Position numbers and translations under genes: made by a program
Assembly (NCBI GenBank): GCA_031291825.1
Contig: JARLIG010000009.1
Span: 136,058 to 200,057 of the forward strand
Source of the DNA: Minisyncoccota bacterium
GTDB taxonomy: Bacteria > Patescibacteriota > Minisyncoccia > Phycocordibacterales > UBA9973
Direction of reading: 5' to 3'
Length of the DNA: 64,000 bases
The notes under the pieces: generated by a model
The model's input: only the letters and a program-made list of their open reading frames with translations
What the model was told of the DNA's origin: nothing
Database searches by the model: none
Shown: positions 4,925 to 60,516 of the stretch, piece after piece
Position numbering within the stretch: position 1 is the stretch's first letter
How the letters are laid out: every line of letters begins with the position of its first letter

Positions 4925-4987
4925 TTAGTTGATAGGGTTGATTTTGGTGGCATAAAAATTAAAAAAAAATTATGCTATATTTATACT

Positions 4988-5587: not shown

Positions 5588-5623
5588 CTGCACCAAAATA
5601 TTTTTTAGAACGTATAATACTGT

Positions 5624-6040: not shown

Positions 6041-6048
6041 TAAAAAAT

Positions 6049-6549
6049 ATGAAAAATATACACGACGACCTCGTAAGGGTTTTTGAATCAAAAACTGCTT
6101 TAAAAGTTTTGTGTGGAATTGGAATAATGTTAGTTGCTCTTTTGATATTTTACGCTGGAGTCAATGTGGGGTTCCATAAGGCTTCATTCGGGCGTGCTTG
6201 GGGGGAAAATTATGAACGCAATTTTGGCTTTGGTCCCGACCACCCTCTGTTGGGCACTGATAATTTTCCTAACGCGAATGGCGCAATTGGCAAAATAATA
6301 AAAATAGAACTACCAACCATCATCGTGCAAGATAAAGACAATACAGAAAAAGTAGTTCTATTAGGTAATGACACAAAAATAGAAAAAGCGATGACCTCAA
6401 TACAGCAAAGCGATCTATCTGTGAACGACTTTGTTGTTGTGATTGGCTCACCAAACGACCAAGGACAGATAGAAGCTAAATTTATAAGAGTAATGCCGCT
6501 CGGTATGCCTGTACCACCAACACAGATGCCAGCTCCAATCCAACAATAA
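6049..6549 (+). CDS. hypothetical membrane-anchored protein
   Basis: 166 aa with an N-terminal TM helix. Start codon abuts the next gene. Confidence 0.4.
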   Translation: MKNIHDDLVRVFESKTALKVLCGIGIMLVALLIFYAGVNVGFHKASFGRAWGENYERNFGFGPDHPLLGTDNFPNANGAIGKIIKIELPTIIVQDKDNTEKVVLLGNDTKIEKAMTSIQQSDLSVNDFVVVIGSPNDQGQIEAKFIRVMPLGMPVPPTQMPAPIQQ

Positions 6550-6550
6550 T

Positions 6551-8257
6551 ATGAAAAATTTTTTCAGTAAAATAAAATTATATGTGTTTACTCATAAGAT
6601 CATTAGCACCATTATCGTAGTGTTAATTGTCGGCATTGGATATTGGGGTTATGGAAAAATAACCAGCACCGGCGGAACGACTCGTTATGTATTGTCACCA
6701 GTTACTAGTGGCACGATTGTATCTTCGATCACTGACAGTGGACAAGTGTCAGCTTTAAATCAAATCAACATCACACCAACCGTTTCTGGCGCTTTAACTG
6801 AGGTAAACGTCAAACCTGGAGACCAAGTTTATGCAGGACAAACACTTTTTGTTATTGATGATACAGACGCACAAAAAACAGTCCGCGATGCGCAAATAAG
6901 TTTACAAAATGCCAACCTCGCGTTGCAAAAACTCCAACTTCAAGACTCAAACACAAACTTGAACGCTTCTCTCTCACAAGCCTATGATAATGGTTTTACT
7001 TCTGTCTCAAATGCTTTTCTAGACTTGCCTTCCATCGAGAATGGTATCAATAACATGTTTTTTGAAAGTACAAATGGAGGTACCCAACAAAATATTGATT
7101 GGTACGCTGAACAAGTTACCAGTGCGCAGACAGACCAAGCCAATCTTTACAAACAAAATTTTCTAGATGCTTACAACTTAGCCTTGACCGCTTATAACCA
7201 GAATTCTACTGATTATAAATCAATCTCCAGAACTTCCGACAATAGTACGATTGATGGTTTAATATCTGAAACTTACAGCACCACAAAACTAATTGCGGAT
7301 GAAATACAAGCTGCAAATAACTACATCGACTTTGTCGACAGTACTCTGCAACAATATAACTATAAAATTCCTACAATAATAACAACTCAATTAGCATCAC
7401 TAAATACTTATACTTCTGAAATTAATTCACACCTAAGTGACATATTAACAGCTGAAACAAATATTGCTAGTAACAAGGATGCTTTTCCAAGTAGCAACTT
7501 AGATACTCAGTCAGCACAAATTGCCATCACTCAAGCACAAAATAGCTTATCGGATGCTGAGCAGAATTTATCCTACTACCACATCAAGGCTCCTTTTGAT
7601 GGAGTCATCTCGAGTGTTCCAGTTATAGTGGGAGACAATGTCGGCTCCGGAACAACTCTGTCGACAATTATTACCTCCAAGGAATTGGCAACGGTTACAC
7701 TTAACGAAGTTGATGTTGCAAAAATAGCTCTCGGAGAAAAAGCGACTCTTACTTTTGATGCGATTCCAAACCTAACCATTGCCGGACAAGTTGTGGAGAT
7801 TGATTCTGTTGGAACCGTTTCTCAAGGAGTTGTAAATTATAATGTTCAAATAAGTTTTGATGCTACTAGTGACGATGGAGTCAAGCCTGGTATGAGTGTT
7901 AATGCAGCAATCATTACCAATGTTGCAGAAAATGTTTTGACTGTACCAAGTAGCGCGATAAAAACACAGGGCGGAGTAAGCTATGTACAGATGTTTGATA
8001 CTGCCCTACCAGCTCCACTAGCTGGAGTGCAAGGTTCTCCATCACTAGTTCCACCAAAAAACCAAACTGTAGTAACCGGTGTTTCTGATGGCACATCTAC
8101 ACAAATAGTATCTGGATTAAACTTAGGTGATGAAATTGTCACCAAAACAATCACCTCAACAACCAAAACAACTGCAACAACTACTGCCCCTAGCATTTTG
8201 AGCGGAGTAGGAGGCGGAGGAAGAGTAAGTGGAGGAGCCGTAAGAATAGGTGGATAA
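6551..8257 (+). CDS. HlyD/MacA-family periplasmic adaptor (membrane fusion protein)
   Basis: N-terminal TM, long coiled coil, beta-barrel motif HIKAPFDGVIS. Followed by an ABC ATPase and an FtsX permease. Confidence 0.7.
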   Translation: MKNFFSKIKLYVFTHKIISTIIVVLIVGIGYWGYGKITSTGGTTRYVLSPVTSGTIVSSITDSGQVSALNQINITPTVSGALTEVNVKPGDQVYAGQTLFVIDDTDAQKTVRDAQISLQNANLALQKLQLQDSNTNLNASLSQAYDNGFTSVSNAFLDLPSIENGINNMFFESTNGGTQQNIDWYAEQVTSAQTDQANLYKQNFLDAYNLALTAYNQNSTDYKSISRTSDNSTIDGLISETYSTTKLIADEIQAANNYIDFVDSTLQQYNYKIPTIITTQLASLNTYTSEINSHLSDILTAETNIASNKDAFPSSNLDTQSAQIAITQAQNSLSDAEQNLSYYHIKAPFDGVISSVPVIVGDNVGSGTTLSTIITSKELATVTLNEVDVAKIALGEKATLTFDAIPNLTIAGQVVEIDSVGTVSQGVVNYNVQISFDATSDDGVKPGMSVNAAIITNVAENVLTVPSSAIKTQGGVSYVQMFDTALPAPLAGVQGSPSLVPPKNQTVVTGVSDGTSTQIVSGLNLGDEIVTKTITSTTKTTATTTAPSILSGVGGGGRVSGGAVRIGG

Positions 8258-8966
8258 AAATATAATGATAGAAATAAAAGACATTACAAAAACATATAAA
8301 ACAGGCGACATTGAGTTCCAGGCTTTAAGGGGCATAACTTTTACCATTAAAGACGGAGAATTTGTGGCGATCATGGGACCATCCGGTTCAGGTAAATCAA
8401 CCTTGATGCATATTTTGGGAGGACTAGACAACCCAACCAGTGGAACATATTTTTTGGACGGAAAAGATGTTTCTAAATTATCTGATGATGAATTGGCAGA
8501 TATTCGAAAAGATAAAATTGGTTTCGTTTTTCAATCTTTCAACTTACTCCCCAGAACAACTGTTTTACGAAACGTGATGCTTCCACTTGTTTATGAGGGA
8601 ATAGAACCAGAAGAAAGAGAGAAGAGGGCAAAAAAAGTTCTTCTCTTGGCGGGTTTGGATGAAGGACATTTTCAAAATCTTTCCAACCAACTCTCCGGTG
8701 GACAAATCCAAAGAGTTGCCATTGCTCGTGCGCTAGTAAACGACCCATCGCTTATTTTAGCCGATGAACCGACAGGAAATCTAGATTCTAAAACTAGCGA
8801 AATTGTTCTAGGAACTTTTCAAAAATTAAATAAGGAATTGGGTCGTACAATTGTCTTAATTACTCACGAACAAGATGTTGCAGAACACGCCGACCGCATA
8901 CTCTTTATAAGAGATGGCTTGCTTAGCGAGAAAGAGCCACATATTAAAAAAATAATAAACATATGA
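8250..8966 (+). CDS. ABC transporter ATP-binding protein, MacB-type
   Basis: [35 protein letters not shown]. About 55 percent identical to the ATPase at 847-1554. Confidence 0.9.
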
Positions 8967-10186
8967 AAAACGCTGACTTATTACACGAAACATATTCCGC
9001 TCTATCTGCCAACAAAGCGCGCTCTGGTCTCACAATGCTTGGCATTATAATTGGTATAGCTTCAGTTATTGCTATGACTGCCATCGGCCAAGGAGCTCAA
9101 AATTCTGTATCTTCCAGTATCCAATCAATCGGAGCAAACTTATTAATGATAATGCCTGGAGCAACACGTACCTTCGGTGGACCTTCTGGTGCTCGTGGTG
9201 CAGCAAAGACTTTAACCTTGGCAGATGCTGATGATATAGCGTCTGAGGTTTCAAACGTAGCTGGAGTAACTCGCGAAGTTACCGCTCGAGAACAAGTCGT
9301 GGGAACAGGCACGAACACAAATACTACGATTACTGGTGTTGAACCTTCATATCTAACAGTTCGAAATGTTGCTGTTGATGAGGGAAATTTTATTTCTGAC
9401 CAAAATGTAACAGACGGCGATAAGGTAGCAGTCTTGGGTCCAACGGTTAGAGATACTTTATTTGGTGTTGGATCAACTGATGCCGTCGGACAAATTATTC
9501 GCATAAATGGCGCTGAATATACTGTTATCGGAACGACGGTCGCAAAAGGTGGTTCTGGTTTTAGTAATGCCGATGATATTATTTATGTTCCATATACAAC
9601 AGCGCAACGTTATCTAACTGGAGATAAATACTTAAGTGAAATCGATGTGCAAGCGGCTACTTCTGCAGAATCAACGCAAGTACAAAACGACATTACCACT
9701 CTTTTACTTTCTAACCACAACATTACTGACCCAACGAAAGCTGATTTCAATGTTCTGAACGAAACATCAATTCTAGCTACCGCCTCATCTGTCACTGGAA
9801 CTTTCACTACCCTGCTCGCAGCCGTCGCGGGAATATCACTGGTCGTCGGCGGAATCGGCATTATGAATATGATGCTCACGACCGTAACCGAACGCACCAG
9901 AGAAATCGGTTTACGTAAAGCAATCGGTGCAAAGAAAAGTGATATCAATAAACAATTTTTAATGGAAGCAATAATGCTCACCTTTATCGGTGGCTTCATT
10001 GGTGTAATACTCGGGTGGCTAATATCATTTGGGGTGACGTATTTCGGAATTTTACAAGCCTCGGTATCAATCTCTTCGATTATTCTCGCTTTCTGTGTTT
10101 CAGCTGGGATTGGAATTATTTTCGGTTATTACCCAGCGCGACGTGCAGCGCAATTAAATCCGATTGATGCATTAAGATATGAGTAA
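8963..10186 (+). CDS. ABC transporter permease, FtsX/MacB family
   Basis: N-terminal TM, large extracytoplasmic domain, C-terminal 3-TM FtsX fold, ends ..NPIDALRYE. Confidence 0.85.
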   Translation: MKNADLLHETYSALSANKARSGLTMLGIIIGIASVIAMTAIGQGAQNSVSSSIQSIGANLLMIMPGATRTFGGPSGARGAAKTLTLADADDIASEVSNVAGVTREVTAREQVVGTGTNTNTTITGVEPSYLTVRNVAVDEGNFISDQNVTDGDKVAVLGPTVRDTLFGVGSTDAVGQIIRINGAEYTVIGTTVAKGGSGFSNADDIIYVPYTTAQRYLTGDKYLSEIDVQAATSAESTQVQNDITTLLLSNHNITDPTKADFNVLNETSILATASSVTGTFTTLLAAVAGISLVVGGIGIMNMMLTTVTERTREIGLRKAIGAKKSDINKQFLMEAIMLTFIGGFIGVILGWLISFGVTYFGILQASVSISSIILAFCVSAGIGIIFGYYPARRAAQLNPIDALRYE

Positions 10187-46298: not shown

Positions 46299-47720
46299 TT
46301 AATTTAAATTAAATTCCCAAAGGAAAGAGTCCTTTTTGTTTACAAAAAATAAGTAATTTCCACTACTATCTAATTGAAGTTTGATACCATCAATAGCTTC
46401 TCCCCCGCTAACTGTAAGTGGGTCTACAAGCATCGTCGTGTTGCCTGTTGTTGTATCTATTTTCCAAATTTCGTCTGAGAAAGATACTTCTCCTTGATAC
46501 CACCCATCAGGATATTGAGTATTGGGAATAAGTCTGGGTACCGCACAATAAACAACCGTACTCGTGTTCCCCCAAACGCATTTTTCTGGGAGAGTTTTAA
46601 CGCCTAAAATAGTTGAAGTATTTGTGGCTGTGTTATAAACACTTAAGTTTAAACTATCATCTCCATAAAGAAGAAGTTTTCCATCAGGACTAGTCAGTGT
46701 AGTAAGACCATTTATATTGCCTAAAATTTGATTAAAATTATTACCACTTTGATTCATCTCATATACATACCCAGGGATGCCGTTAGCGGGCTTGGTCGTC
46801 AAAGTAATATCCTGATTATTTGGCCACCAGGATGTCCACTCAGTGAAAGGTGAACTAAAAATTTGTACTTTTTTATTAGTTAAAAAATTTAAGGTTGTAC
46901 CAATCATATTAGTACCATTATTAAATAAATAAAAGATACTTGAACTGTCTGGTGAAACACTTATGGATTTAATATTGTTTGGCAACAAAGAACCCGTAAG
47001 GGCATTGTTTACAATTGTATCTGCTCCTAAATATTCTTTTGGGAGAGTGCCCATAAAAGTCTCAATTGTTTTTCCATCTGATTGCAAATATCTCATGACT
47101 ACAGAATTTCCACTATTTCCAAAATAGGCATCATAAACTTGGGGAATAACGGTTGTTGTATATTGTCCTTCTGCTATAACATCGGCAAAAGTCTCGTAAA
47201 TATTACCCGTAGCTCTCGCGACATATCTCAAAGCTGGGGCAAATTCTGTCAAAGGAGCAGTAGGTTTGGTAGTAGTTTTTTTTGTACTACTAGTAGTTTT
47301 TGAAGTACTTGTTGTTGGTGTTGCTTGCGGTGAGCTTGTCGAAACTGTTGCGTTTGTGGTGGAAGTCGTTGTGGCGGGAGTTGAATTAGTTGATGGTATT
47401 GCTGGTGTTGGCGTTACAGGAACTATTAATCTTTGTTTACTAAAAACAGTGTAACCAGCGATCGGCATACTAGAAACCTTTTTTAATTTCACATTAGCTG
47501 CAGGAGTTACAACAGGAGGAGTGACTGTGGTTGGTGGTGTGGTCGTGGTTGGTGGCGTTGTTTTACTTGCAAAAGGATTAAACTGCGCGAAAAAATTTGT
47601 GCCAGGGGTATTACTCCCCGTTGTATTTGTTGCTGGTTTACTAAAATAAAAAAATCCAAAAACTGCAATGATTGCGATGATTAGAACTATCATTAAAAGT
47701 ATAAAATTTCTTTTTGACAT
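46299..47720 (-). CDS. membrane-anchored secreted protein with Thr/Pro-rich stalk and TolB-like beta-propeller repeats
   Basis: N-terminal signal-anchor, TTPPTTTTPPTTVTPP linker, repeated SPDG..L.Y motifs typical of PD40/WD40-like propellers. Confidence 0.5.
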   Translation of the reverse strand: MSKRNFILLMIVLIIAIIAVFGFFYFSKPATNTTGSNTPGTNFFAQFNPFASKTTPPTTTTPPTTVTPPVVTPAANVKLKKVSSMPIAGYTVFSKQRLIVPVTPTPAIPSTNSTPATTTSTTNATVSTSSPQATPTTSTSKTTSSTKKTTTKPTAPLTEFAPALRYVARATGNIYETFADVIAEGQYTTTVIPQVYDAYFGNSGNSVVMRYLQSDGKTIETFMGTLPKEYLGADTIVNNALTGSLLPNNIKSISVSPDSSSIFYLFNNGTNMIGTTLNFLTNKKVQIFSSPFTEWTSWWPNNQDITLTTKPANGIPGYVYEMNQSGNNFNQILGNINGLTTLTSPDGKLLLYGDDSLNLSVYNTATNTSTILGVKTLPEKCVWGNTSTVVYCAVPRLIPNTQYPDGWYQGEVSFSDEIWKIDTTTGNTTMLVDPLTVSGGEAIDGIKLQLDSSGNYLFFVNKKDSFLWEFNLN

Positions 47721-47724
47721 AAAA

Positions 47725-48918
47725 TTATTGTATAACCACTGTTGTTCCTTGCTGCATACAAGGAGCCAAAAGAGCCAAATCATCATTCGTCATTCTAACG
47801 CATCCGTTGGTTGTTCCAAGGGTGTCACCTGCATTTCCGTGAAAACCTATCCCCCTGTTAACTCCATTGGAATCTGTTACACCAATATTAACAAATGCTG
47901 CTCCGAAATTATAGCCATTAGAAATAACAGCACTTCCATTGCTTCCCACGGTTTTACTACCCAATTTATAAGTTCCTACCGGGGTTTTTGCATCGCCGTC
48001 TGTTGCTGTTCCTGGTTGTGCTACACCTTTATAGCCAATATTTATAGGCACAGTAACACAAGTGAGACCCGCGCAAAAAGCTGCTGTCTGATTGGTTGTA
48101 TCTACTCCAATAGAGCTTAGTGATGAACAATTGTTTTGTGCAAAGGCAGCAACTCCAGCATCGGGGGCATTGGTTTTATATCCAGTTCCAACAGAAGATG
48201 TGGTCTGTTCACTGTTTGCCAAGGTTGCCTGGTCAGCAGCGTCCATTGTCGTAATATTCGCATTCGGTATTGATGGATCGGAATTAAGTATGTCTGGATT
48301 AATAGTATGTAAAATTGTCCAAGCGCCGAGAGCAAGGATGAGTCCAAACAAAGCATTTCGAATTCTTTCCTTTCCTGCCTCTTTACTGGAAACTAATTCA
48401 CTAGTCATGTATTCAATACCACCCATCAAAATCATTATGACTGCCAAAACTCCACAAATACCAATGAATACAGTTATCATTGGATTTAAATACCTACCCA
48501 AGCTGTTTGGCTGGGCTGTATTGGTGTTGGCATCAAAAAGAGGACCTACTTGAGGTAGTGGAGCTAGAAGATTGTAGTAACCTGTAAAACTGCCATTATT
48601 TCCAGGAGTTTGTAGGCTTTGGTCACAAGATGCTCTTGTTGTGCACTGTTGTGTTGCGCCATTAATTGTACAATCTCCATACGTATCAGGCGTGAATGAT
48701 TTTGCATCTCCCGTAGCAAGCTGCGGAGCACAATCACTTTCTGTTGTATTTTCTATGTAATCTTGACCATTAGCTCCAGGGCCATAATCACACTGACCTG
48801 TTGGGTCAGATTGAGTAGCTTGAGGACAGAATGACGACTGCGCATCTATTCTCACTGTCGAACCAAGGAGTCCAACCAAAGCAATCAGTATTAAAATATA
48901 AAATTTGAATTTTTTCAT
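47725..48918 (-). CDS. secreted Cys-rich protein with internal pilin-like hydrophobic hairpin and C-terminal L,D-transpeptidase (YkuD) domain
   Basis: Signal peptide, 8-Cys region, two hydrophobic helices (ITVFIGICGVLAVIMILMGG..ALFGLILALGAWTIL), and a C-terminal catalytic motif GFHGNAGDTLGTTNGCVRM (H..G...S/T.GC.R). Confidence 0.6.
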   Translation of the reverse strand: MKKFKFYILILIALVGLLGSTVRIDAQSSFCPQATQSDPTGQCDYGPGANGQDYIENTTESDCAPQLATGDAKSFTPDTYGDCTINGATQQCTTRASCDQSLQTPGNNGSFTGYYNLLAPLPQVGPLFDANTNTAQPNSLGRYLNPMITVFIGICGVLAVIMILMGGIEYMTSELVSSKEAGKERIRNALFGLILALGAWTILHTINPDILNSDPSIPNANITTMDAADQATLANSEQTTSSVGTGYKTNAPDAGVAAFAQNNCSSLSSIGVDTTNQTAAFCAGLTCVTVPINIGYKGVAQPGTATDGDAKTPVGTYKLGSKTVGSNGSAVISNGYNFGAAFVNIGVTDSNGVNRGIGFHGNAGDTLGTTNGCVRMTNDDLALLAPCMQQGTTVVIQ

Positions 48919-48922
48919 TTGT

Positions 48923-49909
48923 TTAAAAATTTACTACTATTTCTTTTGTGGCCGTATTCACGAGACTGTGAATGTTATCAACCTCGAGGCCTATCTGCGA
49001 TATTCCTGATTTCCCCGATTGTACTTGTAAAGGTAACATATTTTTGGTGTTATCGGGAACAGAAATTGACTGACCGTTGATAGACCAAGCAAAGGTTAAA
49101 AATGGAATTCTAATATCTGCGGGTGATATGAAATATGGTGCTGCGAGAACATTTTCGTCATTTGTTATTGTGGAGCCGTCAGAAAGTGCTTGCTCCCAGA
49201 TTGTTCCAAGATTTGGGTCGTTTTTATAAAATTCTATTTTTGGAGTTACTGTAGCTATGTTTAAACTGGCGGTTGCTGAATTTTGTTGGTCTATTGATGA
49301 TGCCGTGACGCTAACATTGTTTGAATTGTCTAAATAATCACTTGTGTAGGTATAATAATTTTTACCATAACCAGAATTGGATTGGTCGTTGGTATCGTCC
49401 AAACTCCAAGAATAAAGCATATTGTTTGGGTCAATAAAACTAGAACCACTTTTTATTTCTGGTATAGCTACCACTTTTACTTCGCTTTCAGGTGAGGGCA
49501 TGGATTTTCCCTCATAAAATGGTGGCACATAAGAACCGTCTGCCTCCCAAAGCAGTGTCATTATGGCGGGTTTTACTACAATTGTTTCATTTACATCACC
49601 ATCAGACAAGGCCAGAGTGGCAACCACAGTAGTTTGCTGACCCAAAGCTGGGGCTGTTAAAGAAAAAGATTTTTGACCAATTCCCGATAAAGAACTTTTA
49701 CCGTTGATAGACCAAGATATTAAAACACCATTTAAATCATCAACATAACTACTTAAAGTAATTGTTACATTACTGTTGGGAGTTGGATTTTCTGGAGATG
49801 TGGTTACCGATATGTCTGACGGGGAAGAAGCTTTTGCTTTATATGGTAAAATAACTCCCGCTACTGTAACTACTGCTATTAAAGATAATAATATAAACCT
49901 AAATTTCAT
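48923..49909 (-). CDS. secreted beta-rich hypothetical protein (two internal repeats)
   Basis: Signal peptide. Repeated segments centred on SWSINGKS / AWSINGQS. Confidence 0.4.
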   Translation of the reverse strand: MKFRFILLSLIAVVTVAGVILPYKAKASSPSDISVTTSPENPTPNSNVTITLSSYVDDLNGVLISWSINGKSSLSGIGQKSFSLTAPALGQQTTVVATLALSDGDVNETIVVKPAIMTLLWEADGSYVPPFYEGKSMPSPESEVKVVAIPEIKSGSSFIDPNNMLYSWSLDDTNDQSNSGYGKNYYTYTSDYLDNSNNVSVTASSIDQQNSATASLNIATVTPKIEFYKNDPNLGTIWEQALSDGSTITNDENVLAAPYFISPADIRIPFLTFAWSINGQSISVPDNTKNMLPLQVQSGKSGISQIGLEVDNIHSLVNTATKEIVVNF

Positions 49910-52500: not shown

Positions 52501-52616
52501 AGTTCATAAAGTTATAAAGTTCGTAAAGTATAAAGTAATTAGGTTTATAAAGTTGAATTAATTTAATTTGCATTGTATTTTCTTGATGTACTTGAAAAAC
52601 TTTTTACTTTATAACT
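52501..52616. repeat. AT-rich MITE-like element, copy B (agttcataaagtt ... actttttactttataact), inside the T4SS-like operon
   Basis: 13-mer and 18-mer termini identical to copy A at 44332-44401. Internal TAAAGT tandem motifs. Confidence 0.5.
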
Positions 52617-53076
52617 GACGTTTTTGATCTTTACTAAGATCTAAAACGTCTAAACTCCAAGCCAAGTCTCTTAATTTGCTCCCACTCAACCTTGCCTCAC
52701 CTTGAGACATCATTTTTATTTTATCTCCTTCGTTTTCCACAGACTGTCCAGCAGTCTTTTTCTTTACGACACTTTTTTTCCAAATATAAAGTCGGTCTTT
52801 TGCAAAAAACTTAAAACCCGATTCTAGAGTAAAAATTAAAGGTTTACCATTTGGACGATAAAAAGTAAGCGCAGCTGAAATTCCAGCCATTATCAATATT
52901 GGTATAGCTCCAACCAATAACCCGAGCCATTTAAATAAAACAAAACATATTCCAGCTCCGCCAGCCAAATAAGCAAACTCCTTAAATGTAAAGGGTCCGA
53001 AAATCTTATCTTCTATGTCTAAAAATTGTGGAACTTTGAATTGCATAAGAGAGGCCTCAGAACTATGAAAAGCCAA
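52609..53076 (-). CDS. small membrane protein with TM hairpin, VirB3-like (by topology and position upstream of VirB4)
   Basis: 155 aa. Hydrophobic hairpin FAYLAGGAGICFVLFKWLGLLVGAIPILIMAGISAALTFY. Immediately upstream of the VirB4 ORFs. Confidence 0.4.
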   Translation of the reverse strand: MAFHSSEASLMQFKVPQFLDIEDKIFGPFTFKEFAYLAGGAGICFVLFKWLGLLVGAIPILIMAGISAALTFYRPNGKPLIFTLESGFKFFAKDRLYIWKKSVVKKKTAGQSVENEGDKIKMMSQGEARLSGSKLRDLAWSLDVLDLSKDQKRQL

Positions 53077-53126: not shown

Positions 53127-53867
53127 CTATTCTATCGGTAAACGATAAGGGTCTCGGTTTTTTGCATAAGTTGCTGGCGTAGTTGCCCCGCCTGCTTCAG
53201 AAGCAGGGCGAGTTGGTTTTGTGATATTTTCCAAAGAGTGCTCGGTTTTCACTGTAGTCGTTTGTACTGGGACAGACAATTTTTGTGCCAAGATTGATGG
53301 AGCTGGAGGCTGTACCTTGCCGGTGATTTCCAGTTTCTCTAAGGTAGGTAAAACTTCCTCCTTGTTGATTTGAATCGGAGATATAGGTTTAGCACTTCCA
53401 TCCAGAATTTCAATACCGGCGGTGTTTAATATTTGCGCGTTATCTTTTTTTTCCTCTTCACTTTCGTTTGACAGTGGTGTTATAGAAACATTTTGACTAG
53501 AAGGTATTGTTTGTTCTTGTTTCGCAAGACTACTTTTTCTGTCTGTAGCTTTAATCATTTCTTCTTTTATCTTTGCAAAAACCTGCTCATTCATTTCCTT
53601 AACCAAATCATTGGACTGAGTTCTTGAAATCCTCATTCGCTTTTCAAGTTCTTTTGGATAGTCTTCCGGTCTTAATAACCCACAGAGTAATAATTCTGTT
53701 TCAGTTTCCAGGTCGCCGAGTTGTTCAAAACTATATCCCATTTTATCTCGCAACTTCAAAATGGTGCCTTTCCAGTCAACCGCATTAATTGCATTAAGCG
53801 TGTCTTCTGACAATTGAGATTTTGCCTTTTCTATTTTTATTTGCAAGAAATCTATATTTTCATCCAT
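53127..53867 (-). CDS. hypothetical protein, paralog A of a duplicated N-terminal domain
   Basis: Shares ..DW...L..K......L..ETE.LLL.GL..ED.. with the adjacent 159 aa ORF. Acidic, with no TM helices. Confidence 0.4.
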   Translation of the reverse strand: MDENIDFLQIKIEKAKSQLSEDTLNAINAVDWKGTILKLRDKMGYSFEQLGDLETETELLLCGLLRPEDYPKELEKRMRISRTQSNDLVKEMNEQVFAKIKEEMIKATDRKSSLAKQEQTIPSSQNVSITPLSNESEEEKKDNAQILNTAGIEILDGSAKPISPIQINKEEVLPTLEKLEITGKVQPPAPSILAQKLSVPVQTTTVKTEHSLENITKPTRPASEAGGATTPATYAKNRDPYRLPIE

Positions 53868-53881: not shown

Positions 53882-54361
53882 TTACTTCTTAAAATTTTCT
53901 TCTTTCAGAGAAAAGACCGGGACCACTGGTTCTTCCTCTTCAACTGTTTCTTCTCTTGGTTCCAGAAAAGCGGAATAATCTCCGCCGGAGAGAACAAAAT
54001 TAATATTTTCCTCGGGTTTTGAATTTTTTATCTTGTCGCTTTGTTTAACTTTGTCTATCAGCAGGTCATTTATTGGTATAAATATTTTTTGAGTAATTTC
54101 TCCAGAGATTTTTTCCGCTTCATTCTTACTGGTGCCAACTTCAGACTCAATGTTGTCTATATATGAATCAATGTCTTCAATACCAGTTAAAATCAGAAGT
54201 GTTTCTACTTGAAGATTATTTATGTCATCTTTAGATAGTAAATATTTTTTACCGATTTCTTCCGTAAGTTTTACCCAGTCAAAAGAAGTCAAAACATCTT
54301 GTGTTTCCTTTGGTAGTTTTTCAATCTCTTTTTTAATTGTTGTTTTTAATTCATCTGTCAT
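53882..54361 (-). CDS. hypothetical protein, paralog B
   Basis: N-terminal domain similar to paralog A (FDWVKLTEEIGKK..LQVETLLILTGIEDID). Confidence 0.4.
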   Translation of the reverse strand: MTDELKTTIKKEIEKLPKETQDVLTSFDWVKLTEEIGKKYLLSKDDINNLQVETLLILTGIEDIDSYIDNIESEVGTSKNEAEKISGEITQKIFIPINDLLIDKVKQSDKIKNSKPEENINFVLSGGDYSAFLEPREETVEEEEPVVPVFSLKEENFKK

Positions 54362-54366: not shown

Positions 54367-56778
54367 TTAATGTCCCCCTCCATGTCCTCCTGCATCATGT
54401 CCACCTCCTCCACCATGGTCATCTTTTGCCGGTGCGGCGTGGGCATCTGGAGTTGGAGCATGTGCTACCGGCGCATGACTAGCAGCTTGACTAGCAGCTG
54501 CTGGTTTGGGTGCGGGGGTGTGTCCTCCTCCACTACCTCCTCCACCATGACCACTGTCTCCACCTCCGTGTCCTCCACCATGTTCTATTTTGGCATCGGT
54601 TCTAATCTTAAAGGCAGCTTCCCTGGCACCTCTGAAGCTGTGCTGTCCCATACTAAAGATAAAGTCTTTTGTTTGCGTTAATCCGCTTTCTACTGTGTGA
54701 GCATAAACGTGCTTTCTTCTTATATTTTCCATTTTTATTGCTCGAGCCGCATCTCTTTTCTGTTCTTCTAAGCCCTCAATACTTATACCAGTTCCTTTCT
54801 GTATTGCTGTGTTTCCAACACTGTCTGTAACCATGTAATCTGCACCCGATCTGAATTCTTTTTTACTTCGCTTCGCAAAATCATAATCACGGTTTGCTTG
54901 TGCTAGTTCTTCTCTTGCTGCTCCTTCTCCATCAGTACCCTTGGCGGCATTTAGTTTGTTGTTTGCAACACTCACTTCTTCTTTTTTCTTTTCAATTGCC
55001 TTATCAAGTTTTTCCATTACTTCTGAATTTTCACTTAGCAAGTCGTGCAAATCCGTTTCTGTTTTGTTTAAGTTCTGCTTTAATGTTTCGTCTTCTCCAA
55101 CCTCTATGCTCTTTGCTCTCTCTTGTCTCTTTGCTATTTGTTCTTTTCTTCTCTCTGTAAAGCCACCTTTTTGTGCTGTGCCCAAATTCAAACCAGTTGC
55201 GGATGCCAAAGTCTTTCCACCAATCTTTGCTGCACGTACATCAAAGCTTGCAGAACCGGCAGCCCCAGTTATTTTTCTAAATGCCTCACCTCCCCATCCT
55301 TTAGCTTCCCATTTCTTCGCAAAACCAGATTCAGAGATAGCTGCACCAGCTCGTCCGACAGTCGCTCGGCTTACAGCGGCCGCTCCACCCAAAGCTACTG
55401 TTGATGCTCCGCTTGTTGCAGCACCTAACGCAAGTCCACCCACAGCCTTGGCTGCCCCAATTGCCATTTCGCCAAGCTTGCCTGAACCATCGAGGGCAAA
55501 CTTTGTCGCTTTGAGAAGTAAAATCACAACAATCAATTCTGGAATTAAAATGGAAAGTAAGGTCACCATTATGCTTGAAGGATTTGGCGTGAGCAGGCTG
55601 CCAAACATATTTGAATGGACCAAGAGGAATATGAAATACATAAAGAACATAAAAATCGGCGCCATGAATGATGTCTTGAGCAAGCGCTTAAGCCACGCAT
55701 CCCAGCCGATATATTCAATATGTTCCAATACGGGCGTAGTGAAAGACATAAATGCAAAAGGCGAAAAGATGATCAAAATAAAGAGTTCAATCATACGGCT
55801 GATTAAACTAAACCCAGCCACAAAAAATGCATAGCAGGCAATCTCCATCAGCGTTCCAGCCAATATCATTATCCCAATTACTGTTCCAGCAGATGGCGGC
55901 TGCGGTTGTGGGGCTGGTTGCCCCACCACACCGATTGCTCCAGCATCACCAAAGAATGTCGGACTCAAAAGTGTCATTGGGTTAAAAGCATTAACTAACC
56001 CTCCAGCGATATCTCTTTCTCCGGCAACGCTTTCATAAGGTCTTGGGCTGCCATCTGCGTTCAAAGTAGTCACACTCATTTTATTATAAAAAATCAAAGC
56101 TAAAATATTTGAAGAATCAATCACCACTTCCGTGAAAAACATCGAGAAATTTATCAACAAGGCAATGATGATAACCTTTCCTATCATCTGCTTTGTGTCG
56201 TGTCCGCCAATACCTAAAATTAATCTGACAGCTATATAAAGCAAAATCAGAATGAAAAAGATATTAGAAAGGTCACGAACGACTGCCCAAGCTGTTGGCA
56301 AAAAAGTAGAGCCAGAATATATATTGCTGTAGAGAGTGATTGATGCTACGAAGTTGAAAAAGTAAGCGATGCAGAAAAGCAATAAACCTGGAAATGTAAT
56401 GAAAAGCCAATTACCAATTGCCAAACCGCAACCTGGCCAAATGGTAGCCTTGCTATTATCCGTAGTAATGCCCAATATGCCTATTCCACAACTGTTATTT
56501 GCAAGAAAATCGTTAAGGTCTTTACCTGGATTTGTTAAATTTGTTGATTGTTGCTGTAGCGTTGCATACGCGTTTGCCATAGTTTGTGTCGTAAACCATT
56601 GTCCGTGAATGGTGTTGCAATCCGTAAATGTATCAGCGCTTACTGTGTTTGTTGGAGAAACACACCATCCATTTTGTGTTTGCGCCTTAGCTTGTCTTGT
56701 CGGTATCAAGCCAAAAACTCCGACTAAAAAAATCAGTGCTAGGAGGTACGGGGTTATTTTTTTAATTTTTAAATTCAT
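54367..56778 (-). CDS. large polytopic membrane protein, VirB6/TrbL-like, with coiled-coil region and His/Gly-rich C-terminal tail
   Basis: Signal peptide, at least 8 TM helices in the first 460 aa, then a charged coiled coil. The C-terminus is GGGHGGGDSGHGGGGSGGGH...HGGGGGHDAGGHGGGH. Confidence 0.5.
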   Translation of the reverse strand: MNLKIKKITPYLLALIFLVGVFGLIPTRQAKAQTQNGWCVSPTNTVSADTFTDCNTIHGQWFTTQTMANAYATLQQQSTNLTNPGKDLNDFLANNSCGIGILGITTDNSKATIWPGCGLAIGNWLFITFPGLLLFCIAYFFNFVASITLYSNIYSGSTFLPTAWAVVRDLSNIFFILILLYIAVRLILGIGGHDTKQMIGKVIIIALLINFSMFFTEVVIDSSNILALIFYNKMSVTTLNADGSPRPYESVAGERDIAGGLVNAFNPMTLLSPTFFGDAGAIGVVGQPAPQPQPPSAGTVIGIMILAGTLMEIACYAFFVAGFSLISRMIELFILIIFSPFAFMSFTTPVLEHIEYIGWDAWLKRLLKTSFMAPIFMFFMYFIFLLVHSNMFGSLLTPNPSSIMVTLLSILIPELIVVILLLKATKFALDGSGKLGEMAIGAAKAVGGLALGAATSGASTVALGGAAAVSRATVGRAGAAISESGFAKKWEAKGWGGEAFRKITGAAGSASFDVRAAKIGGKTLASATGLNLGTAQKGGFTERRKEQIAKRQERAKSIEVGEDETLKQNLNKTETDLHDLLSENSEVMEKLDKAIEKKKEEVSVANNKLNAAKGTDGEGAAREELAQANRDYDFAKRSKKEFRSGADYMVTDSVGNTAIQKGTGISIEGLEEQKRDAARAIKMENIRRKHVYAHTVESGLTQTKDFIFSMGQHSFRGAREAAFKIRTDAKIEHGGGHGGGDSGHGGGGSGGGHTPAPKPAAASQAASHAPVAHAPTPDAHAAPAKDDHGGGGGHDAGGHGGGH

Positions 56779-56810: not shown

Positions 56811-59552
56811 TTAATTTGCCGTCCAGATCGTGCCAGTTCCTTCACAAGAAGATTGTGGTACATTGTCTCTAACAACAACGCAGGCTCCATTTGTCCAATT
56901 TCCATTAATAGTAGAACAAGCACTTTCTGGCACTCCGTTTATGGTCATCGAACAGGTTCCTAGCTGGCTAGAGGTTGAAGATACGGTAATAGTTGATGTG
57001 ACAGTTTGATGAACCGGTGTCGATGAATCCTGAACTGTAAAAGGAGTAGAACCTTGTGAGTTTCCAGTGATTGTAATATTCGAGCCAGAAAGCGCGACAC
57101 TTGCGACTGTTCCATTTGGCCATGTGGATATGCTATATGGCACTGTGCCACCAGTGATGGTTATTGTCTGGGAATTATTAATTGACTCAGAAATATTTTG
57201 GGGAATAGTTAGAGAATTTGATGTCGGATTACTGGGAGTAGTGCCATTTCCTGTCACAGTTATGTTGAGTGAGTCAGTATCGTTAGATTGATCTTGCACT
57301 ATCATTGATGTGGTTCCCGATGCCACTCCTGTGAGAGAAAGAGTATTTCCGTAAATTTGAGCAATCGCGACCGCAGAACTCGGTTCTGTTTTTATACTAT
57401 ATAGTGCCGCTGAACTTGTGTTGCTTGTATTTACTTTTCCATTAACAAGGGTCAGGTTGGTTGTTCCGCTTGCAGTTAAAGACACATTCTGGGTTTGTGG
57501 GTTGCTGAAATCAATTATTGAAGACTTGGTCGCACCGACTGTGATTGGAACATTAATAGTTTGCTCCGGAGAGAATGAATCCTGAATAGTCACTGATGTT
57601 GTTCCAGCTGTGGATCCGATAACAGTAAGAGTGTTGCCAGAAACCAACGCTGATGCTATGGATGAATTTGATGGTGTTATTATGGCGAAAGGAGGTGTGC
57701 CACCAGAAATAGTTACATTTGTTGTACTTCCTATATTCGCAGAAACAGCTGGAACAGAAAGTGAAGACTCACTACCAATTACAATTTGCAAAGTAATAGT
57801 ATTAGCTGGAGTTGAAGAATCTTGAAGAATAATTGAAGTATTTCCAGGCGCGACACCGATAATTGTAAGAACATTATCGGAAATAAGTCCCAACGCAATA
57901 GTTGAATCTGGTTCGGATTGTATACTATAAGGAGCCGTACCATTTGATATAGTTATGTTTGTTGAGCTTCCGACGCCGGCAGAAATTTTTTGTAAGGCGG
58001 TTGGGTTATTGAAATCAACAATTAAACTGGTTGTCACTTGCACCGTAGCTGTTTGGGCTGGAGTTCCGGAATCTGTAACTACGAATGATGTTTGACCTCC
58101 GGCAACACCCGTGACAGATAGATTGGTTCCAGAAATATTAGCTGTTGCTACGGATGAACCAGGTGGTGTTTGTATTGTATAAGGTGCTGTGCCCCCAGAA
58201 ATGATTGTTGAAGTTGTGTTGCCAGGTTTGACTAGGACACTTGTCGGGACGACTAATGGATTTGTTGTACCACCACCACCTGCGCCGTTTAAAGTTTGTC
58301 CTGCATAACTCCAACTATCTGGTGAAGGGATAGACTGGACTGTTTGTGAAAGTGCGCTTAAACCTTGTTGCAAGAAATGATTTATGAAAGCATTTAAAAT
58401 AGCAGAAATACTGTTTCCAAGGGCTGCATCTAGTTGGGCTGAGCCAGTTTTTAAATTTAGAGCACTCGTTATTTGATTTGCCACAACTGCGCCCGGAGTG
58501 GTTGTAACTAAACCACTTGTGCCGTTAGGTTTTATACATTGATTTGTTTCAGCCCATGTGTCTTGGGCTTCACTATACAAAATGTCATAATCTTTTTGTG
58601 TTTGTGCTTCACAGGTTGCGTTAATGCCGGTAGGGCAATCTGCTGCTTCGGTTTGGTTCCAGATGCTACCGTCAGTATCAAAAGTAAAAGTTGGTTTATG
58701 CCACTCGTCGGCACTATTGTTGTAGCTTGGGTTTACGCTTGCGGGGCAAACTTGTGGAGACAAAAATCCCATTCCTTGCTGAAGCGTCGAAGTCACTTTT
58801 TGTGCATCATTCTGCGTGGTTCCTGCAAGTTGTGAAGCCAAGTTTTGACTTGCAAGCATGCTGTATCCTGGATAATTATTTTGTGGATACTGAGTATTTA
58901 AAAAGAAAGCATTCCATCCGCCAGCGTTAAAATTATTTTGATAACTTTGCACTAAAGCTGGGTCATTAGTTATCTGACTGTAACTGGATTGCATGTCAGC
59001 ATTGCCTGCTTGTTTATACATATTTATTACCTGCAAATCCCAAGCCTTACCGAAAGGAAACTGAACCGAATTATATCCAGTCTGATTTATTATATTTTTT
59101 ATTTCAAATTGACCGATGTCTCCAAAGAATTGGCTTGGATTTTGTACGAAAAGTGGAGAGCCAGAAAAACCAGAATTAATCCAATTGACTGTACTTTGGG
59201 TTATAGAATCTAGCAATTTATGCTCAATAACAATAATAGCTTGTCTTAAAACCTCTTTAGCTGCAGCCTCTATTTTCATTGCAAGACTTATGTGTGTGTC
59301 TACTGCTGTAGACGCGGTTGCGGGTGCTACAACACCTGCAGTTGTCCCCGATGTGACAGTATTTTCGCCAAGATCTGCTGAGTTTTCGCCAAGATCTGCA
59401 TAATTAAATCCTTCATCTAAAAATTCAGGAAAGTCGCCATTGTAGTCATTAGCCTTTGCTTTTTTAGGGACAGAAAGTAAAACAACTGGCGTTATTATTA
59501 GAATAATAACAATAGAAGAAATTAATTTTACTATATATTTTTTTCCTATCAT
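56811..59552 (-). CDS. large secreted surface protein with about six tandem Ig-like (Big-type) repeats and a Cys-rich C-terminus
   Basis: Signal peptide, about 430 aa N-terminal domain, then repeats of about 85 aa (GGTAPY.IQT.P.SS.A.A.ISGN.L.V.G...G.TS..VQDS..P....T). The C-terminus contains 6 Cys. Confidence 0.6.
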   Translation of the reverse strand: MIGKKYIVKLISSIVIILIITPVVLLSVPKKAKANDYNGDFPEFLDEGFNYADLGENSADLGENTVTSGTTAGVVAPATASTAVDTHISLAMKIEAAAKEVLRQAIIVIEHKLLDSITQSTVNWINSGFSGSPLFVQNPSQFFGDIGQFEIKNIINQTGYNSVQFPFGKAWDLQVINMYKQAGNADMQSSYSQITNDPALVQSYQNNFNAGGWNAFFLNTQYPQNNYPGYSMLASQNLASQLAGTTQNDAQKVTSTLQQGMGFLSPQVCPASVNPSYNNSADEWHKPTFTFDTDGSIWNQTEAADCPTGINATCEAQTQKDYDILYSEAQDTWAETNQCIKPNGTSGLVTTTPGAVVANQITSALNLKTGSAQLDAALGNSISAILNAFINHFLQQGLSALSQTVQSIPSPDSWSYAGQTLNGAGGGGTTNPLVVPTSVLVKPGNTTSTIISGGTAPYTIQTPPGSSVATANISGTNLSVTGVAGGQTSFVVTDSGTPAQTATVQVTTSLIVDFNNPTALQKISAGVGSSTNITISNGTAPYSIQSEPDSTIALGLISDNVLTIIGVAPGNTSIILQDSSTPANTITLQIVIGSESSLSVPAVSANIGSTTNVTISGGTPPFAIITPSNSSIASALVSGNTLTVIGSTAGTTSVTIQDSFSPEQTINVPITVGATKSSIIDFSNPQTQNVSLTASGTTNLTLVNGKVNTSNTSSAALYSIKTEPSSAVAIAQIYGNTLSLTGVASGTTSMIVQDQSNDTDSLNITVTGNGTTPSNPTSNSLTIPQNISESINNSQTITITGGTVPYSISTWPNGTVASVALSGSNITITGNSQGSTPFTVQDSSTPVHQTVTSTITVSSTSSQLGTCSMTINGVPESACSTINGNWTNGACVVVRDNVPQSSCEGTGTIWTAN
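57000..58300 (-). repeat. tandem DNA repeats of about 250 bp encoding the Ig-like repeats
   Basis: Recurrent units visible at DNA level (for example ggtgtgccaccagaaat / ggtgctgtgcccccagaaat and ccatttgatatagttatgtttgttgagcttcc-like segments). Confidence 0.5.
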
Positions 59553-59589: not shown

Positions 59590-60516
59590 TTAATCTTTCA
59601 ATCCCACGTCTATTGCATTTGCTAACGTATTAATAGAAGTTCCCAGAACTACGGTGTTTGTTTCATACTTACTTATCCCGCTGAACGAAACCAGTGGGTC
59701 ATTGTTGTATTGTTGTATGTCGTTTAGATTTTCAATCACCTCTTCTAGTGAGTTTATAACACTCAAATGGGCAACTGCTAAAGATTGTGGAACTTCTGTT
59801 TTTAGCATTCCGTTCAGCATAGTACTTAATACTTTGATAGTTGGGCTAAGTTCTGGTAATACAGTTGGGTCTACGTTGTTCCCTGTGTCGTCTGGGGCAA
59901 ATTGTTGCAATACGTCCATTACGGAAGGTTTTACATATGTTTTTGGAAAAAAGACATCTAACGCATCACTATATTTTTTTATTGATTTTGTACCATTGTC
60001 ATTGCTAATTTTTAAGTCGGACAACGAATATATTTTTTTTTGTGGAGAATTCTGTACATTATTTTCCAATGTGTTGGTTATTTGATCTGCTGTAGCTTGG
60101 TCCATATTACCATTAGCATCTATCGCGCCAGTTTGTGTTAGTGTTGTAAGTGTCGCAAGAAACTCTCTGGAAAATTGGTCAGTTTGTGTCAAACTAGAAC
60201 TGGAGCCTTCGACGTTTGCCTGACCGCCTGCCTCTTGTTCTTGCTCTTGTTCCAACTTTGCGATTGTCACACTGTCTGGAACTCCAGGAACATTTTCTGT
60301 CTTTGTGGGGTCGAGTCCAAATAGAATCTTTTTCCAATCAGGTATACCATCTCCTGTGGTGCTTTTGTTGACCAAGTCCGCCACCGTTTCGTTGCCGTAG
60401 GTTAATCCAGATTGTTGATTTCCACTAATGTAACTGATTGTATTTTTGAATAGATTTTTATTTTTTACACAAAAAATTACAACGACAAAAAGAATTGCAG
60501 AAGCAACCCAAATCAC
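59590..60516 (-). CDS. bitopic membrane protein (N-terminal TM, extracytoplasmic domain), first gene of the T4SS-like operon
   Basis: N-terminal hydrophobic anchor followed by a Q/E-rich linker (EQEQEQE) and an alpha/beta domain. VirB8-like topology only. Confidence 0.35.
   Translation of the reverse strand: MIWVASAILFVVVIFCVKNKNLFKNTISYISGNQQSGLTYGNETVADLVNKSTTGDGIPDWKKILFGLDPTKTENVPGVPDSVTIAKLEQEQEQEAGGQANVEGSSSSLTQTDQFSREFLATLTTLTQTGAIDANGNMDQATADQITNTLENNVQNSPQKKIYSLSDLKISNDNGTKSIKKYSDALDVFFPKTYVKPSVMDVLQQFAPDDTGNNVDPTVLPELSPTIKVLSTMLNGMLKTEVPQSLAVAHLSVINSLEEVIENLNDIQQYNNDPLVSFSGISKYETNTVVLGTSINTLANAIDVGLKD

Follow-up and report, generated by a model that had tools for sequence, protein, structure and literature searches.

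What is a peptidoglycan enzyme doing at the end of a pilin-like protein, inside the secretion cluster of an ultra-small bacterium? The question is raised by a gene for a 397-residue protein, hereafter the chimera, in a 64,000-nucleotide stretch of contig JARLIG010000009.1 (the window), which comes from a member of the Nomurabacteria/Paceibacteria (Patescibacteria) that is probably dependent on a host. A preliminary description, made from the letters of the window, had read this protein as a fusion of a Cys-rich region, a pilin-like hairpin and an L,D-transpeptidase domain within a cluster resembling a type IV secretion system (T4SS). We found that the chimera is a mosaic that joins a variable N-terminal ectodomain, a conserved VirB2-like two-helix core and an exchangeable C-terminal enzyme head, and that the head behaves as an exchangeable cassette that is swapped at the level of strains. 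The exchange, which extends over nine or more head classes, is a more remarkable feature than the YkuD fusion itself.

In order, the chimera consists of a signal peptide, a Cys-rich N-ectodomain, a two-helix T4SS_pilin module and a C-terminal YkuD domain (Table 1). The signal peptide expected from the preliminary description (MKKFKFYILILIALVGLLGSTVRIDA) is borne out on a reading of the sequence alone: it has a basic n-region, a hydrophobic core that forms a hydropathy peak, small residues at -3 and -1 and a predicted cut before QS, and the aligned N-termini of homologues are equivalent to it. The region that follows was said to hold eight cysteines; it holds six (31, 43, 63, 83, 92 and 98), of twelve in the whole chimera. 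This N-ectodomain is hypervariable in length and sequence among homologues, and it is ill-defined, with low predicted local distance difference test (pLDDT) values, in an AlphaFold2 (AF2) model of the chimera that was built on 34 homologues. A Cys-rich N-terminal domain was considered as a conserved feature and rejected, because the domain is hypervariable and its Cys-rich region is not kept among homologues.

The core matches the T4SS_pilin family (PF18895) over aa 141-204 at E=4.8e-9, with 36.6 bits against a cutoff of 26.6, and the AF2 model has helices at 139-172 and 176-206 (pLDDT about 80-87), joined by what reads in the sequence as a short, basic loop, SSKEAGKERIR. These results support the VirB2/TrbC-like hairpin of the preliminary description, although TrbC itself stays below threshold: TrbC/VirB2 (PF04956) scores 16.7 bits in the chimera versus a cutoff of 27.9, and reaches E<=1e-3 in 15/120 homologues, compared to 116/120 for PF18895. 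NCBIfam gave a further sub-threshold match to the Mbov_0395 'pilin-like conjugal transfer protein' family. A profile of the core, compared to PDB sequences, retrieved generic transmembrane (TM) proteins (ArcB, MacB) and no pilins, and the profile and fold searches gave no specific link of the core to solved conjugative pilins. Many residues of the core are invariant across 120 proteins, and the cytoplasmic loop is highly conserved too; the core is 59-76% identical to the cores at loci with unrelated heads. The preliminary description had proposed the pilin-like part as a tethering anchor; for a tether alone the hairpin, cytoplasmic loop included, is too conserved. The mature protein of ~371 aa differs in size from a small pilin, which is essentially the hairpin alone at about 70-120 aa; the additions amount to about 85 aa on the N-terminal side and 185 aa on the C-terminal side.

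A scan of the chimera against Pfam and NCBIfam returned YkuD as the sole catalytic domain and no lytic transglycosylase, CHAP or NlpC/P60 domain. The YkuD family (PF03734) matches aa 272-396 at E=7.9e-12, with 46.4 bits against a gathering score of 23.4, and the match covers model positions 6-146 of 146. The active-site motif, RGIGFHGNAGDTLGTTNGCVRM, lies at aa 355-376. Across 34 aligned YkuD-type homologues, His360 and Cys373 are invariant, Arg375 is conserved in at least 90%, and the shared motif is RGIGFHG-x9-TNGC[IV]RM, with an H-x12-C spacing; its GC[IV]RM part matches the motif of B. subtilis YkuD. In the AF2 model the head (aa 230-397) has pLDDT >90 and adopts the YkuD beta-sandwich fold, for which Foldseek found B. 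subtilis YkuD (1y7m, E=1.3e-6) as the closest PDB entry, followed by the L,D-carboxypeptidases Pgp2 (6xj6, E=8.8e-5) and Csd6 (4xzz, E=3.4e-4). A phmmer search of PDB sequences with the whole chimera retrieved Pgp2 alone, at E=0.08. The YkuD active site that had been proposed is thus confirmed by the profile, by the invariant His and Cys and by the structural match. It should be noted that the solved structures nearest to the head include both transpeptidase and L,D-carboxypeptidase/exchange types, between which sequence and fold do not discriminate. Nevertheless, because the closest structures after YkuD are L,D-carboxypeptidases, the other heads are hydrolases and Tlde1a provides a precedent, trimming or exchange of tetrapeptides may be considered at least as likely as 3-3 cross-linking for the YkuD head.

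An exhaustive phmmer search with aa 230-397 against 1.84 billion cluster representatives (50% identity) retrieved no more than 154 proteins at E<=1e-3. Among the 150 that scored best, at least 126 carry the pilin core upstream and YkuD at the extreme C-terminus, with N-terminal extensions in the subfamily of up to about 720 aa, and the remainder are mostly short fragments; the catalytic motif was found in nearly all of the 150, with T-N-G-C-[IV]-R-M and H-x12-C recurring. Because pilin fusions dominate the matches to this extent, the YkuD head is a dedicated, divergent lineage found almost only in such fusions, rather than a recently captured housekeeping L,D-transpeptidase. The NCBI entry identical to the window protein reads 'MAG: L,D-transpeptidase family protein [Candidatus Pacebacteria bacterium]', and several homologues bear the JGI label 'lipoprotein-anchoring transpeptidase ErfK/SrfK', which is a generic label only. 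The pair of Pfam domains, YkuD and T4SS_pilin, is already visible in public annotations. Among GTDB species genomes, most of those with a relative bear the name Candidatus Nomurabacteria, Paceibacterota or Minisyncoccia.

A homology search with the whole chimera found 302 proteins, and domains were counted in the best 120. The fusion that the preliminary description proposed to look for in related genomes is indeed present, with YkuD heads in 34 of the 120 and in the same slot of syntenic loci; the other recognised heads are VanY (15), NlpC/P60 (12), Peptidase_M15_4 (6), SLT_2 (6) and Amidase_5 (2). All share one layout, in which a variable N-region (0-255 aa) precedes the core (about 100 aa) and the head (about 150-230 aa). 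Clustering resolved eight classes of heads, three of which (unkA, n=24; unkB, n=9; unkC, n=9) are unmatched in Pfam even at a threshold of E<=1. By hhalign the classes are mutually unrelated, with the exceptions of M15_4-VanY and unkB-unkC. In a census of 80 species-representative genomes, NlpC/P60 heads were found in 12, unkC and VanY in 11 each, unkA in 9, SLT_2, YkuD and M15_4 in 5 each and unkB in 1; 15 heads belong to none of the eight classes, and 6 are shorter than 60 aa (truncated or at a contig end). One of the 15 unassigned heads is Amidase_2. In all, there are nine or more head classes. Each head recognised by Pfam is a peptidoglycan enzyme, and the nameable heads target the glycan strand, the MurNAc-L-Ala amide and several bonds of the stem peptide. 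For the other classes the assignments are tentative. The unkA profile has no match in the PDB, and its invariant H-x7-D...H-x-H pattern is the sole basis on which it is a candidate LAS peptidase. The unkB heads (L005 8001-9188, P0018) and unkC heads (P0064 group) are Cys-rich, with E-S ... G-x-x-Q-I(N) motifs like those of lysozyme, SLT and VirB1; unkB weakly matches lysozyme C (E=0.078) and unkC has no match. These motifs, together with the mutual hhalign match at E=1e-3, make both classes candidates for SLT-like enzymes. The head in the closest relative of the window (DnaA 95% identical) is unkB.

Heads are exchanged at the level of strains. The nearest protein by pilin-core identity has the same head class in 34/114 cases, versus 17% by chance, and in some pairs the cores are 94-100% identical and the heads different. 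For example, two loci from different samples, L007 (YkuD) and L008 (NlpC/P60), share 98.3% DNA identity over 3978 nucleotides (nt) and 97.6% over the next 1549 nt; the 555 nt between these flanks show no similarity, and they are exactly the segment that begins where helix 2 ends (INPDILNTD) and runs up to the stop codon. In a second pair, L089 (YkuD) and L090 (NlpC/P60), the flanks are 95-97% identical and the core 90%, while the N-ectodomain and the head are both replaced; the two N-ectodomains, of about 55 aa (L089 3517-3677) and about 205 aa (L090 1563-2184), have no similarity. The downstream gene differs within this pair as well, by an indel in its linker region (L089 4853-5132). Compared to loci with other heads, the DNA similarity of the window stops near 48246-48277 and resumes at about 47731. 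Two arms that flank the head are conserved as DNA at 9/9 loci, namely the INPD[IL]LNTD codons and the stop codon with the first ~35 nt of the next gene (ATGTCAAAAAGAAATTTTATACTTTTAATAAT), and it is plausible that they serve homologous recombination. The window chimera is itself a mosaic: its N-domain has relatives only in proteins with non-YkuD heads (P0018, 47%; P0019, 44%), the nearest relative of its core is P0019 (84%), a protein with an unkA head, and that of its head is P0002 (65%). No immunity gene is swapped along with the head in L007/L008, in L089/L090 or in the nine-locus comparison, where the 3' breakpoint is the stop codon; the start of the gene that follows lies 4-20 nt past the stop codon of the head, and this gene is conserved with every head class. 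Orphan or silent head cassettes were absent from the window and from six long contigs (L001-L006), in which hidden Markov models (HMMs) of the heads match the expressed gene alone.

The T4SS-like cluster of the preliminary description was likewise confirmed: genes for a VirB4-like ATPase, a PrgI/VirB3-like and a polytopic VirB6-like protein precede that of the chimera on its strand. The operon is co-directional and tightly packed; the chimera gene is the second one after virB4 and is separated from each of its neighbours by 4 nt, a spacing that implies co-translation within the operon. With VirB4, TrsD/TraC-like, PrgI/VirB3, VirB6-like and VirB2-like genes near dnaA, dnaN, rnpA and ksgA, the cluster is the oriC-proximal MPF-FATA-like T4SS of Patescibacteria described in PMC12102498; its flanks are jag/yidC/rnpA/dnaA/dnaN/PBP1 on one side and ksgA/uvrD on the other. 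The six long contigs L001-L006 carry different heads in the gene order of the window: an ~800-aa polytopic protein, small proteins, PrgI, TraC-like, VirB4, an ~328-aa protein, the pilin-head gene, an ~455-aa protein, jag, yidC, rnpA, dnaA, dnaN and PBP1. Over 10 related loci, the synteny and the slot two genes after virB4 are identical, and the slot holds NlpC/P60, M15_4, SLT_2, VanY, YkuD or a head of no recognised family. The heads of L001-L006 are not homologous to that of the window, with the exception of the YkuD locus. The pilin-module gene is single in the window and in each 17-kb locus. A possible second pilin at 8948-10183, which had a weak HMM match, is a MacB/FtsX permease and was rejected as a false positive. 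No head-type enzyme domain other than that of the chimera was found with the head HMMs in the window or in L001-L006, and the cluster proteins that were scanned contain no other peptidoglycan-enzyme domains.

Table 1. Features of the chimera and of its gene cluster; positions are those of the window, and residue numbers those of the chimera.
Feature	Position	Strand	Basis
Chimera gene (pilin core/YkuD), 397 aa + stop	47725..48918	(-)	Open reading frame list, translation check
Predicted Sec signal peptide, aa 1-26 (MKKFKF... RIDA, cut before QS)	48841..48918	(-)	Sequence reading
Variable N-terminal ectodomain, aa 27-111	48586..48840	(-)	Cys positions, low pLDDT, hypervariability
VirB2-like pilin core, aa 112-212: Y-x-LLAPLP motif, helix 1, basic loop, helix 2, INPDIL junction	48283..48585	(-)	PF18895, AF2, conservation
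Helix 1 of pilin core	48403-48504	(-)	AF2 helix 139-172
Helix 2 of pilin core	48301-48393	(-)	AF2 helix 176-206
Exchangeable head cassette, aa 213-397 (linker + YkuD domain)	47728..48282	(-)	DNA similarity breaks versus other loci
YkuD (L,D-transpeptidase-fold) catalytic domain, aa 272-396	47731..48105	(-)	PF03734, pLDDT, Foldseek
Catalytic His360 codon	47839..47841	(-)	Invariant in 34 homologues, coordinate checked
Catalytic Cys373 codon	47800..47802	(-)	Invariant in 34 homologues, coordinate checked
Arg375 codon	47794-47796	(-)	Nearly invariant, coordinate checked
Downstream gene, 473 aa: TM, Thr/Pro-rich linker, globular domain	46299..47720	(-)	Conserved start, cross-locus identity
Upstream exported protein, 328 aa, N-terminal TM or signal	48923..49909	(-)	Fixed position, 4 nt from chimera
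VirB4-like ATPase, 632 aa	49962..51860	(-)	PF19044 TraG P-loop, E=7e-26
TraC-like/TrsD-like protein, 213 aa	51853..52494	(-)	PF26593 TraC-like, precomputed in L001-L006 orthologues
PrgI/VirB3-like protein, 155 aa, 2 TM	52609..53076	(-)	PF12666, E=2.2e-7; TM count
Two small soluble proteins	53882-54361, 53127-53867	(-)	Operon order
Polytopic membrane protein, 803 aa, about 8 TM, VirB6-like	54367..56778	(-)	Hydropathy, synteny
913-aa exported protein with T2SS-T3SS_pil_N	56811-59552	(-)	PF13629
308-aa protein	59590-60516	(-)	Operon order

The proteins of the cluster differ widely in their rates of divergence. Across L001-L006, identities to the window proteins are 88-95% for DnaA, 89-94% for VirB4 and 83-87% for the TraC-like protein, which has no match of its own in a local Pfam scan of the window, compared to 43-69% for the exported neighbours of the chimera. 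Within this one operon, the conserved VirB4, TraC-like and DnaA proteins thus contrast with the 803-aa (43-44%), 328-aa (51-58%) and 473-aa (59-69%) proteins; evolution is much faster in the external parts of the machine than in the internal ones. The 803-aa protein, which is syntenic with the ~800-aa gene of the related loci, has no Pfam match, so that its VirB6-like identity is inferred from topology and position. The 328-aa protein also lacks a Pfam match and has the same place at every locus examined. For the 473-aa protein, which again has no Pfam match, a mechanically called 495-aa open reading frame (46299-47786, minus strand) overlaps the chimera gene by 62 nt; translation almost certainly begins instead at the ATG at 47720 (MSKRNFILL...), which follows the chimera stop codon by 4 nt and is conserved as DNA at 9/9 loci compared. 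In L089, a YkuD-head locus, the downstream gene (4539-6098) is longer, at 519 aa, and has a faint PG_binding_1 match, which hints that the conserved downstream protein may likewise contact peptidoglycan.

Several further observations concern the cluster as a whole. Small genes of a selfish or accessory kind lie between the small soluble proteins and prgI in L003 (3437-3784), L006 (3380-3962) and L005 (2941-3207); a 23S_rRNA_IVP gene, a BrnT/CopG toxin-antitoxin pair and a GIY-YIG gene were found there in different genomes, and this point looks like a local insertion hotspot. In L005, the closest relative of the window, cluster genes are split over 3946-7959 (PrgI into 77 + 72 aa, the 328-aa gene into 190 + 118 aa, with a TraC-like fragment of 118 aa), which is either an indel error of the assembly, the contig name suggesting long reads, or decay of the cluster. 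The 913-aa exported protein of the window contains T2SS-T3SS_pil_N (PF13629, E=2.5e-13, aa 731-767), which is unexpected in a monoderm-type T4SS cluster; this domain normally goes with secretin or pilus-formation proteins.

We favour, with a confidence that stops just short of even, the reading that the chimera is a cell-wall-processing subunit of the T4SS, the counterpart of VirB1/PrgK, which acts on the producer's own wall during assembly of the apparatus. Under this reading, Sec would export the chimera, and the hairpin would be inserted such that its two ends face outward and the loop SSKEAGKERIR lies in the cytoplasm. The pilin core would dock the protein to the VirB3/VirB4/VirB6-like machine, and the head, on a linker of roughly 25 residues, would work in the peptidoglycan layer where the machine sits; as long as the hairpin remained embedded, so short a linker would let the head reach no further than a few nanometres from the membrane. 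In a tetrapeptide stem, Cys373 would attack where the L-centre (position 3) is joined to D-Ala4. The resulting acyl-enzyme could react with water, which would make the head an L,D-carboxypeptidase, with a D-amino acid, which would amount to exchange, or with a neighbouring stem, which would yield a 3-3 cross-link. The head segment would be replaced by homologous recombination between the conserved flanking arms, and the replacement would be tolerated, since the task can be done by any enzyme capable of opening or editing peptidoglycan.

The favoured reading is supported by the intact domains and active site, the operon position, the conservation of the slot with other peptidoglycan enzymes and the absence of a second pilin module or a further peptidoglycan-enzyme domain from the cluster proteins that were scanned. 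Membrane-anchored peptidoglycan hydrolases, such as PrgK and TraG of pIP501, are standard and essential in monoderm T4SSs (PMC12102498). It is ranked first on grounds of parsimony, the short linker and the missing immunity gene, which agrees with a non-toxic, self-directed enzyme. Several observations weigh against it. A housekeeping enzyme of the own wall is not expected to be swapped, between 98%-identical strains, for non-homologous enzymes that cut different bonds, nor to stand beside a hypervariable N-ectodomain. The conservation of the hairpin and cytoplasmic loop is too high for a mere anchor and, therefore, suggests genuine pilin behaviour (extraction, polymerisation). The transpeptidase fold is not that of a lytic enzyme, and the reaction of the head is a prediction. 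Finally, the fast evolution of the extracellular cluster proteins (43-69%, versus about 92% for VirB4) is typical of host-interaction surfaces. A variant of the own-wall reading, counted within the confidence given to it and in itself unlikely, would attribute the swaps of head and N-ectodomain to phages or host defences directed at these exposed parts, with functional redundancy among peptidoglycan enzymes permitting the replacement. This would explain both the missing immunity genes and the turnover of cassettes, and the hypervariable arrays of VirB2-like pilins in other Patescibacteria have been read as variation in host or immune interaction (PMC12102498); however, a role of phages or receptors is a supposition, and the present data do not separate this variant from the two main models.

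Conversely, the target wall could be that of the host rather than the producer's own, and we regard this as possible, though on the whole doubtful. The chimera would then be a true pilin that is extracted by VirB4 and polymerised, or cleaved at the LAPLP/INPDLL borders to release its ectodomains, and that presents the head to the host wall; heads and N-ectodomains would be swapped to match the peptidoglycan chemistry or surface receptors of the host, and the YkuD head, in the manner of Tlde1, would weaken the target wall through L,D-carboxypeptidase and D-amino-acid exchange activity. Analogues are the virion-associated peptidoglycan hydrolases on phage tails and the peptidoglycan-targeting effectors of type VI secretion systems (T6SSs) and T4SSs. 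This reading draws strength from the strain-level replacement of cassettes with exact borders, from the nearest core having the same head class in merely 34/114 cases, from the mosaic make-up and hypervariable N-domain of the window protein itself, and from the fast extracellular cluster proteins next to VirB4 and DnaA that are about 90% identical. The conservation of hairpin and cytoplasmic loop beyond the needs of an anchor, the position of the chimera as the sole VirB2-like gene of its cluster and the structural proximity of the head to Pgp2 and Csd6 point the same way, as do the known YkuD-fold antibacterial effector Tlde1a (PMC9638812) and the requirement for the T4SS and its pilins in epibiotic growth of Saccharibacteria (PMC10633639). 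Against it, no immunity gene co-varies with the heads although the producer's own wall is exposed to them, orphan cassettes are missing, polymerisation of a pilin with globular additions of about 85 aa and 185 aa is assumed, the profile and fold searches did not tie the core specifically to conjugative pilins of solved structure, and archaea, which have no peptidoglycan, may be the partners of some Paceibacteria. A specific form of this idea, which we hold to be rather less probable than its failure, is a 'wall-drilling pilus', i.e., a pilin built into or shed from the T4SS whose outward ends carry a receptor-binding-like N-ectodomain and a swappable peptidoglycan enzyme that breaches the host wall. 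If true, it would be a polymorphic-effector system without immunity genes and a new mode of linking effectors to a T4SS, in which the effector is fused to the pilin and not translocated through the channel. Covalent anchoring, which the preliminary description also proposed, found no specific support. A YkuD head that works like E. coli ErfK/YbiS/YcfS, linking the chimera or another T4SS component to peptidoglycan stems, would agree with the fold, the intact catalytic dyad and the generic ErfK/SrfK label of several homologues; however, close relatives have in this slot hydrolases (NlpC/P60, SLT, M15, amidase) that are incapable of anchoring, so that anchoring is not the conserved role of the slot. 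In addition, the NCBIfam LdtE match is negligible (12 bits versus a cutoff of 480) and no candidate substrate protein co-varies with the YkuD head, and we consider this explanation very improbable. The last alternative, a housekeeping L,D-transpeptidase with a two-TM anchor that lies beside T4SS genes by chance, would suit the plain NCBI label and the presence of PBP1 and other envelope genes nearby. It is largely refuted, with barely a residual chance of being right, by an anchor that is above threshold for T4SS_pilin, a place two genes after virB4 that is fixed in 10/10 related loci, the near restriction of the YkuD subfamily to pilin fusions and the 4-nt spacing.

The Patescibacteria T4SS cluster, its place near oriC and its VirB2-like pilins are already published (PMC12102498, Quinonero-Coronel et al. 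2025; PMC10633639, Wang et al. 2023; review PMC12857230), and this T4SS is the only one known to be essential for the growth of its owner (transposon sequencing in Saccharibacteria, PMC10633639). Table S3 of PMC12102498 labels the genes at the position of the chimera 'VirB2' only, and its text does not mention YkuD, transpeptidase or a pilin-enzyme fusion. The same study states that VirB1 is missing from most genomes with VirB2 and that a tight linkage of VirB1 (CD419, NlpC/P60-type) to virB4 is confined to Paceibacteria; both statements would be accounted for by the chimeras. We found no description of pilin-enzyme chimeras or of head exchange in the open-access literature, although a prior description elsewhere is possible. 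The results show that, in a large lineage of Paceibacteria, the sole VirB2-like component is fused to a peptidoglycan enzyme, and that this enzyme and the N-ectodomain are exchanged among strains with about 98% identity elsewhere, which points to the cell wall as the substrate of the machine and to diversifying pressure on the exposed ends of the pilin. The conclusion of PMC12102498 that VirB2 without VirB1 means pilus biogenesis without a wall enzyme may need revisiting, given that one polypeptide here holds both. The chimera also sets a precedent for a YkuD-fold enzyme as the wall enzyme of a secretion system, and at least three conserved head families without Pfam or PDB match are candidates for new cell-wall enzymes.

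The comparison with known systems shows where the chimera resembles them and where it departs. Polymorphic toxins (CdiA-CT, Rhs-CT, MafB) and modular phage lysins or tail hydrolases share with it a conserved N-terminal part, a sharp junction (here INPD[IL]L) and swapped C-terminal enzymes. The chimera thus shows the exchange that is characteristic of polymorphic toxins but not their downstream immunity gene, and it has no orphan cassettes; where nameable, its heads are cell-wall enzymes, whereas those of polymorphic toxins are nucleases, deaminases or similar. Tlde1/Tlde1a, YkuD-like antibacterial effectors of the Salmonella T6SS that act by L,D-carboxypeptidase/exchange rather than as cross-linkers (PMC9638812), are likewise YkuD-fold enzymes tied to a secretion machine and aimed at peptidoglycan. 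However, Tlde1 is a soluble T6SS cargo with an immunity protein, Tldi1, and a capping subdomain, while the chimera is membrane-anchored and T4SS-linked with no adjacent immunity gene, and the PDB searches with the chimera did not retrieve Tlde1 by sequence. Among YkuD-fold enzymes in general (1y7m, Ldt/ErfK, Csd6 4xzz, Pgp2 6xj6), the head has the fold and the His...Gly-Cys-[IV]-Arg motif in common, and it differs in its short H-x12-C spacing, its divergence and the absence of a LysM or PG_binding domain.

VirB2/TrbC pilins (PF04956, PF18895) have the same signal peptide, two helices, short basic loop and virB3/virB4 neighbours as the chimera; they measure about 70-120 aa when mature, compared to about 370 aa with an 85-aa N-ectodomain and a 185-aa enzyme. 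Saccharimonadia and Microgenomatia have arrays of 2-11 small pilins, whereas the chimera is a single gene. A further parallel is with VirB1 (SLT), PrgK (pCF10), TraG (pIP501) and the CD419-type NlpC/P60 enzymes, which are also encoded in T4SS operons, exported, membrane-anchored and directed at peptidoglycan. YkuD chemistry for a T4SS wall enzyme was not reported in the open-access papers that our literature search covered. The suggestion of the preliminary description that an L,D-transpeptidase would be an unusual alternative to VirB1 is in part upheld: such an alternative is reasonable, because the slot holds classical peptidoglycan hydrolases in close relatives, but the protein is not singular, since at least 126 of the best 150 head matches carry the pilin core. 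The sister proteins in the slot carry SLT_2 or NlpC/P60 domains, as hydrolases of the VirB1/PrgK type do. These T4SS hydrolases are held by a single TM helix, whereas the chimera combines a VirB2-like hairpin as anchor with a head that is exchanged between strains.

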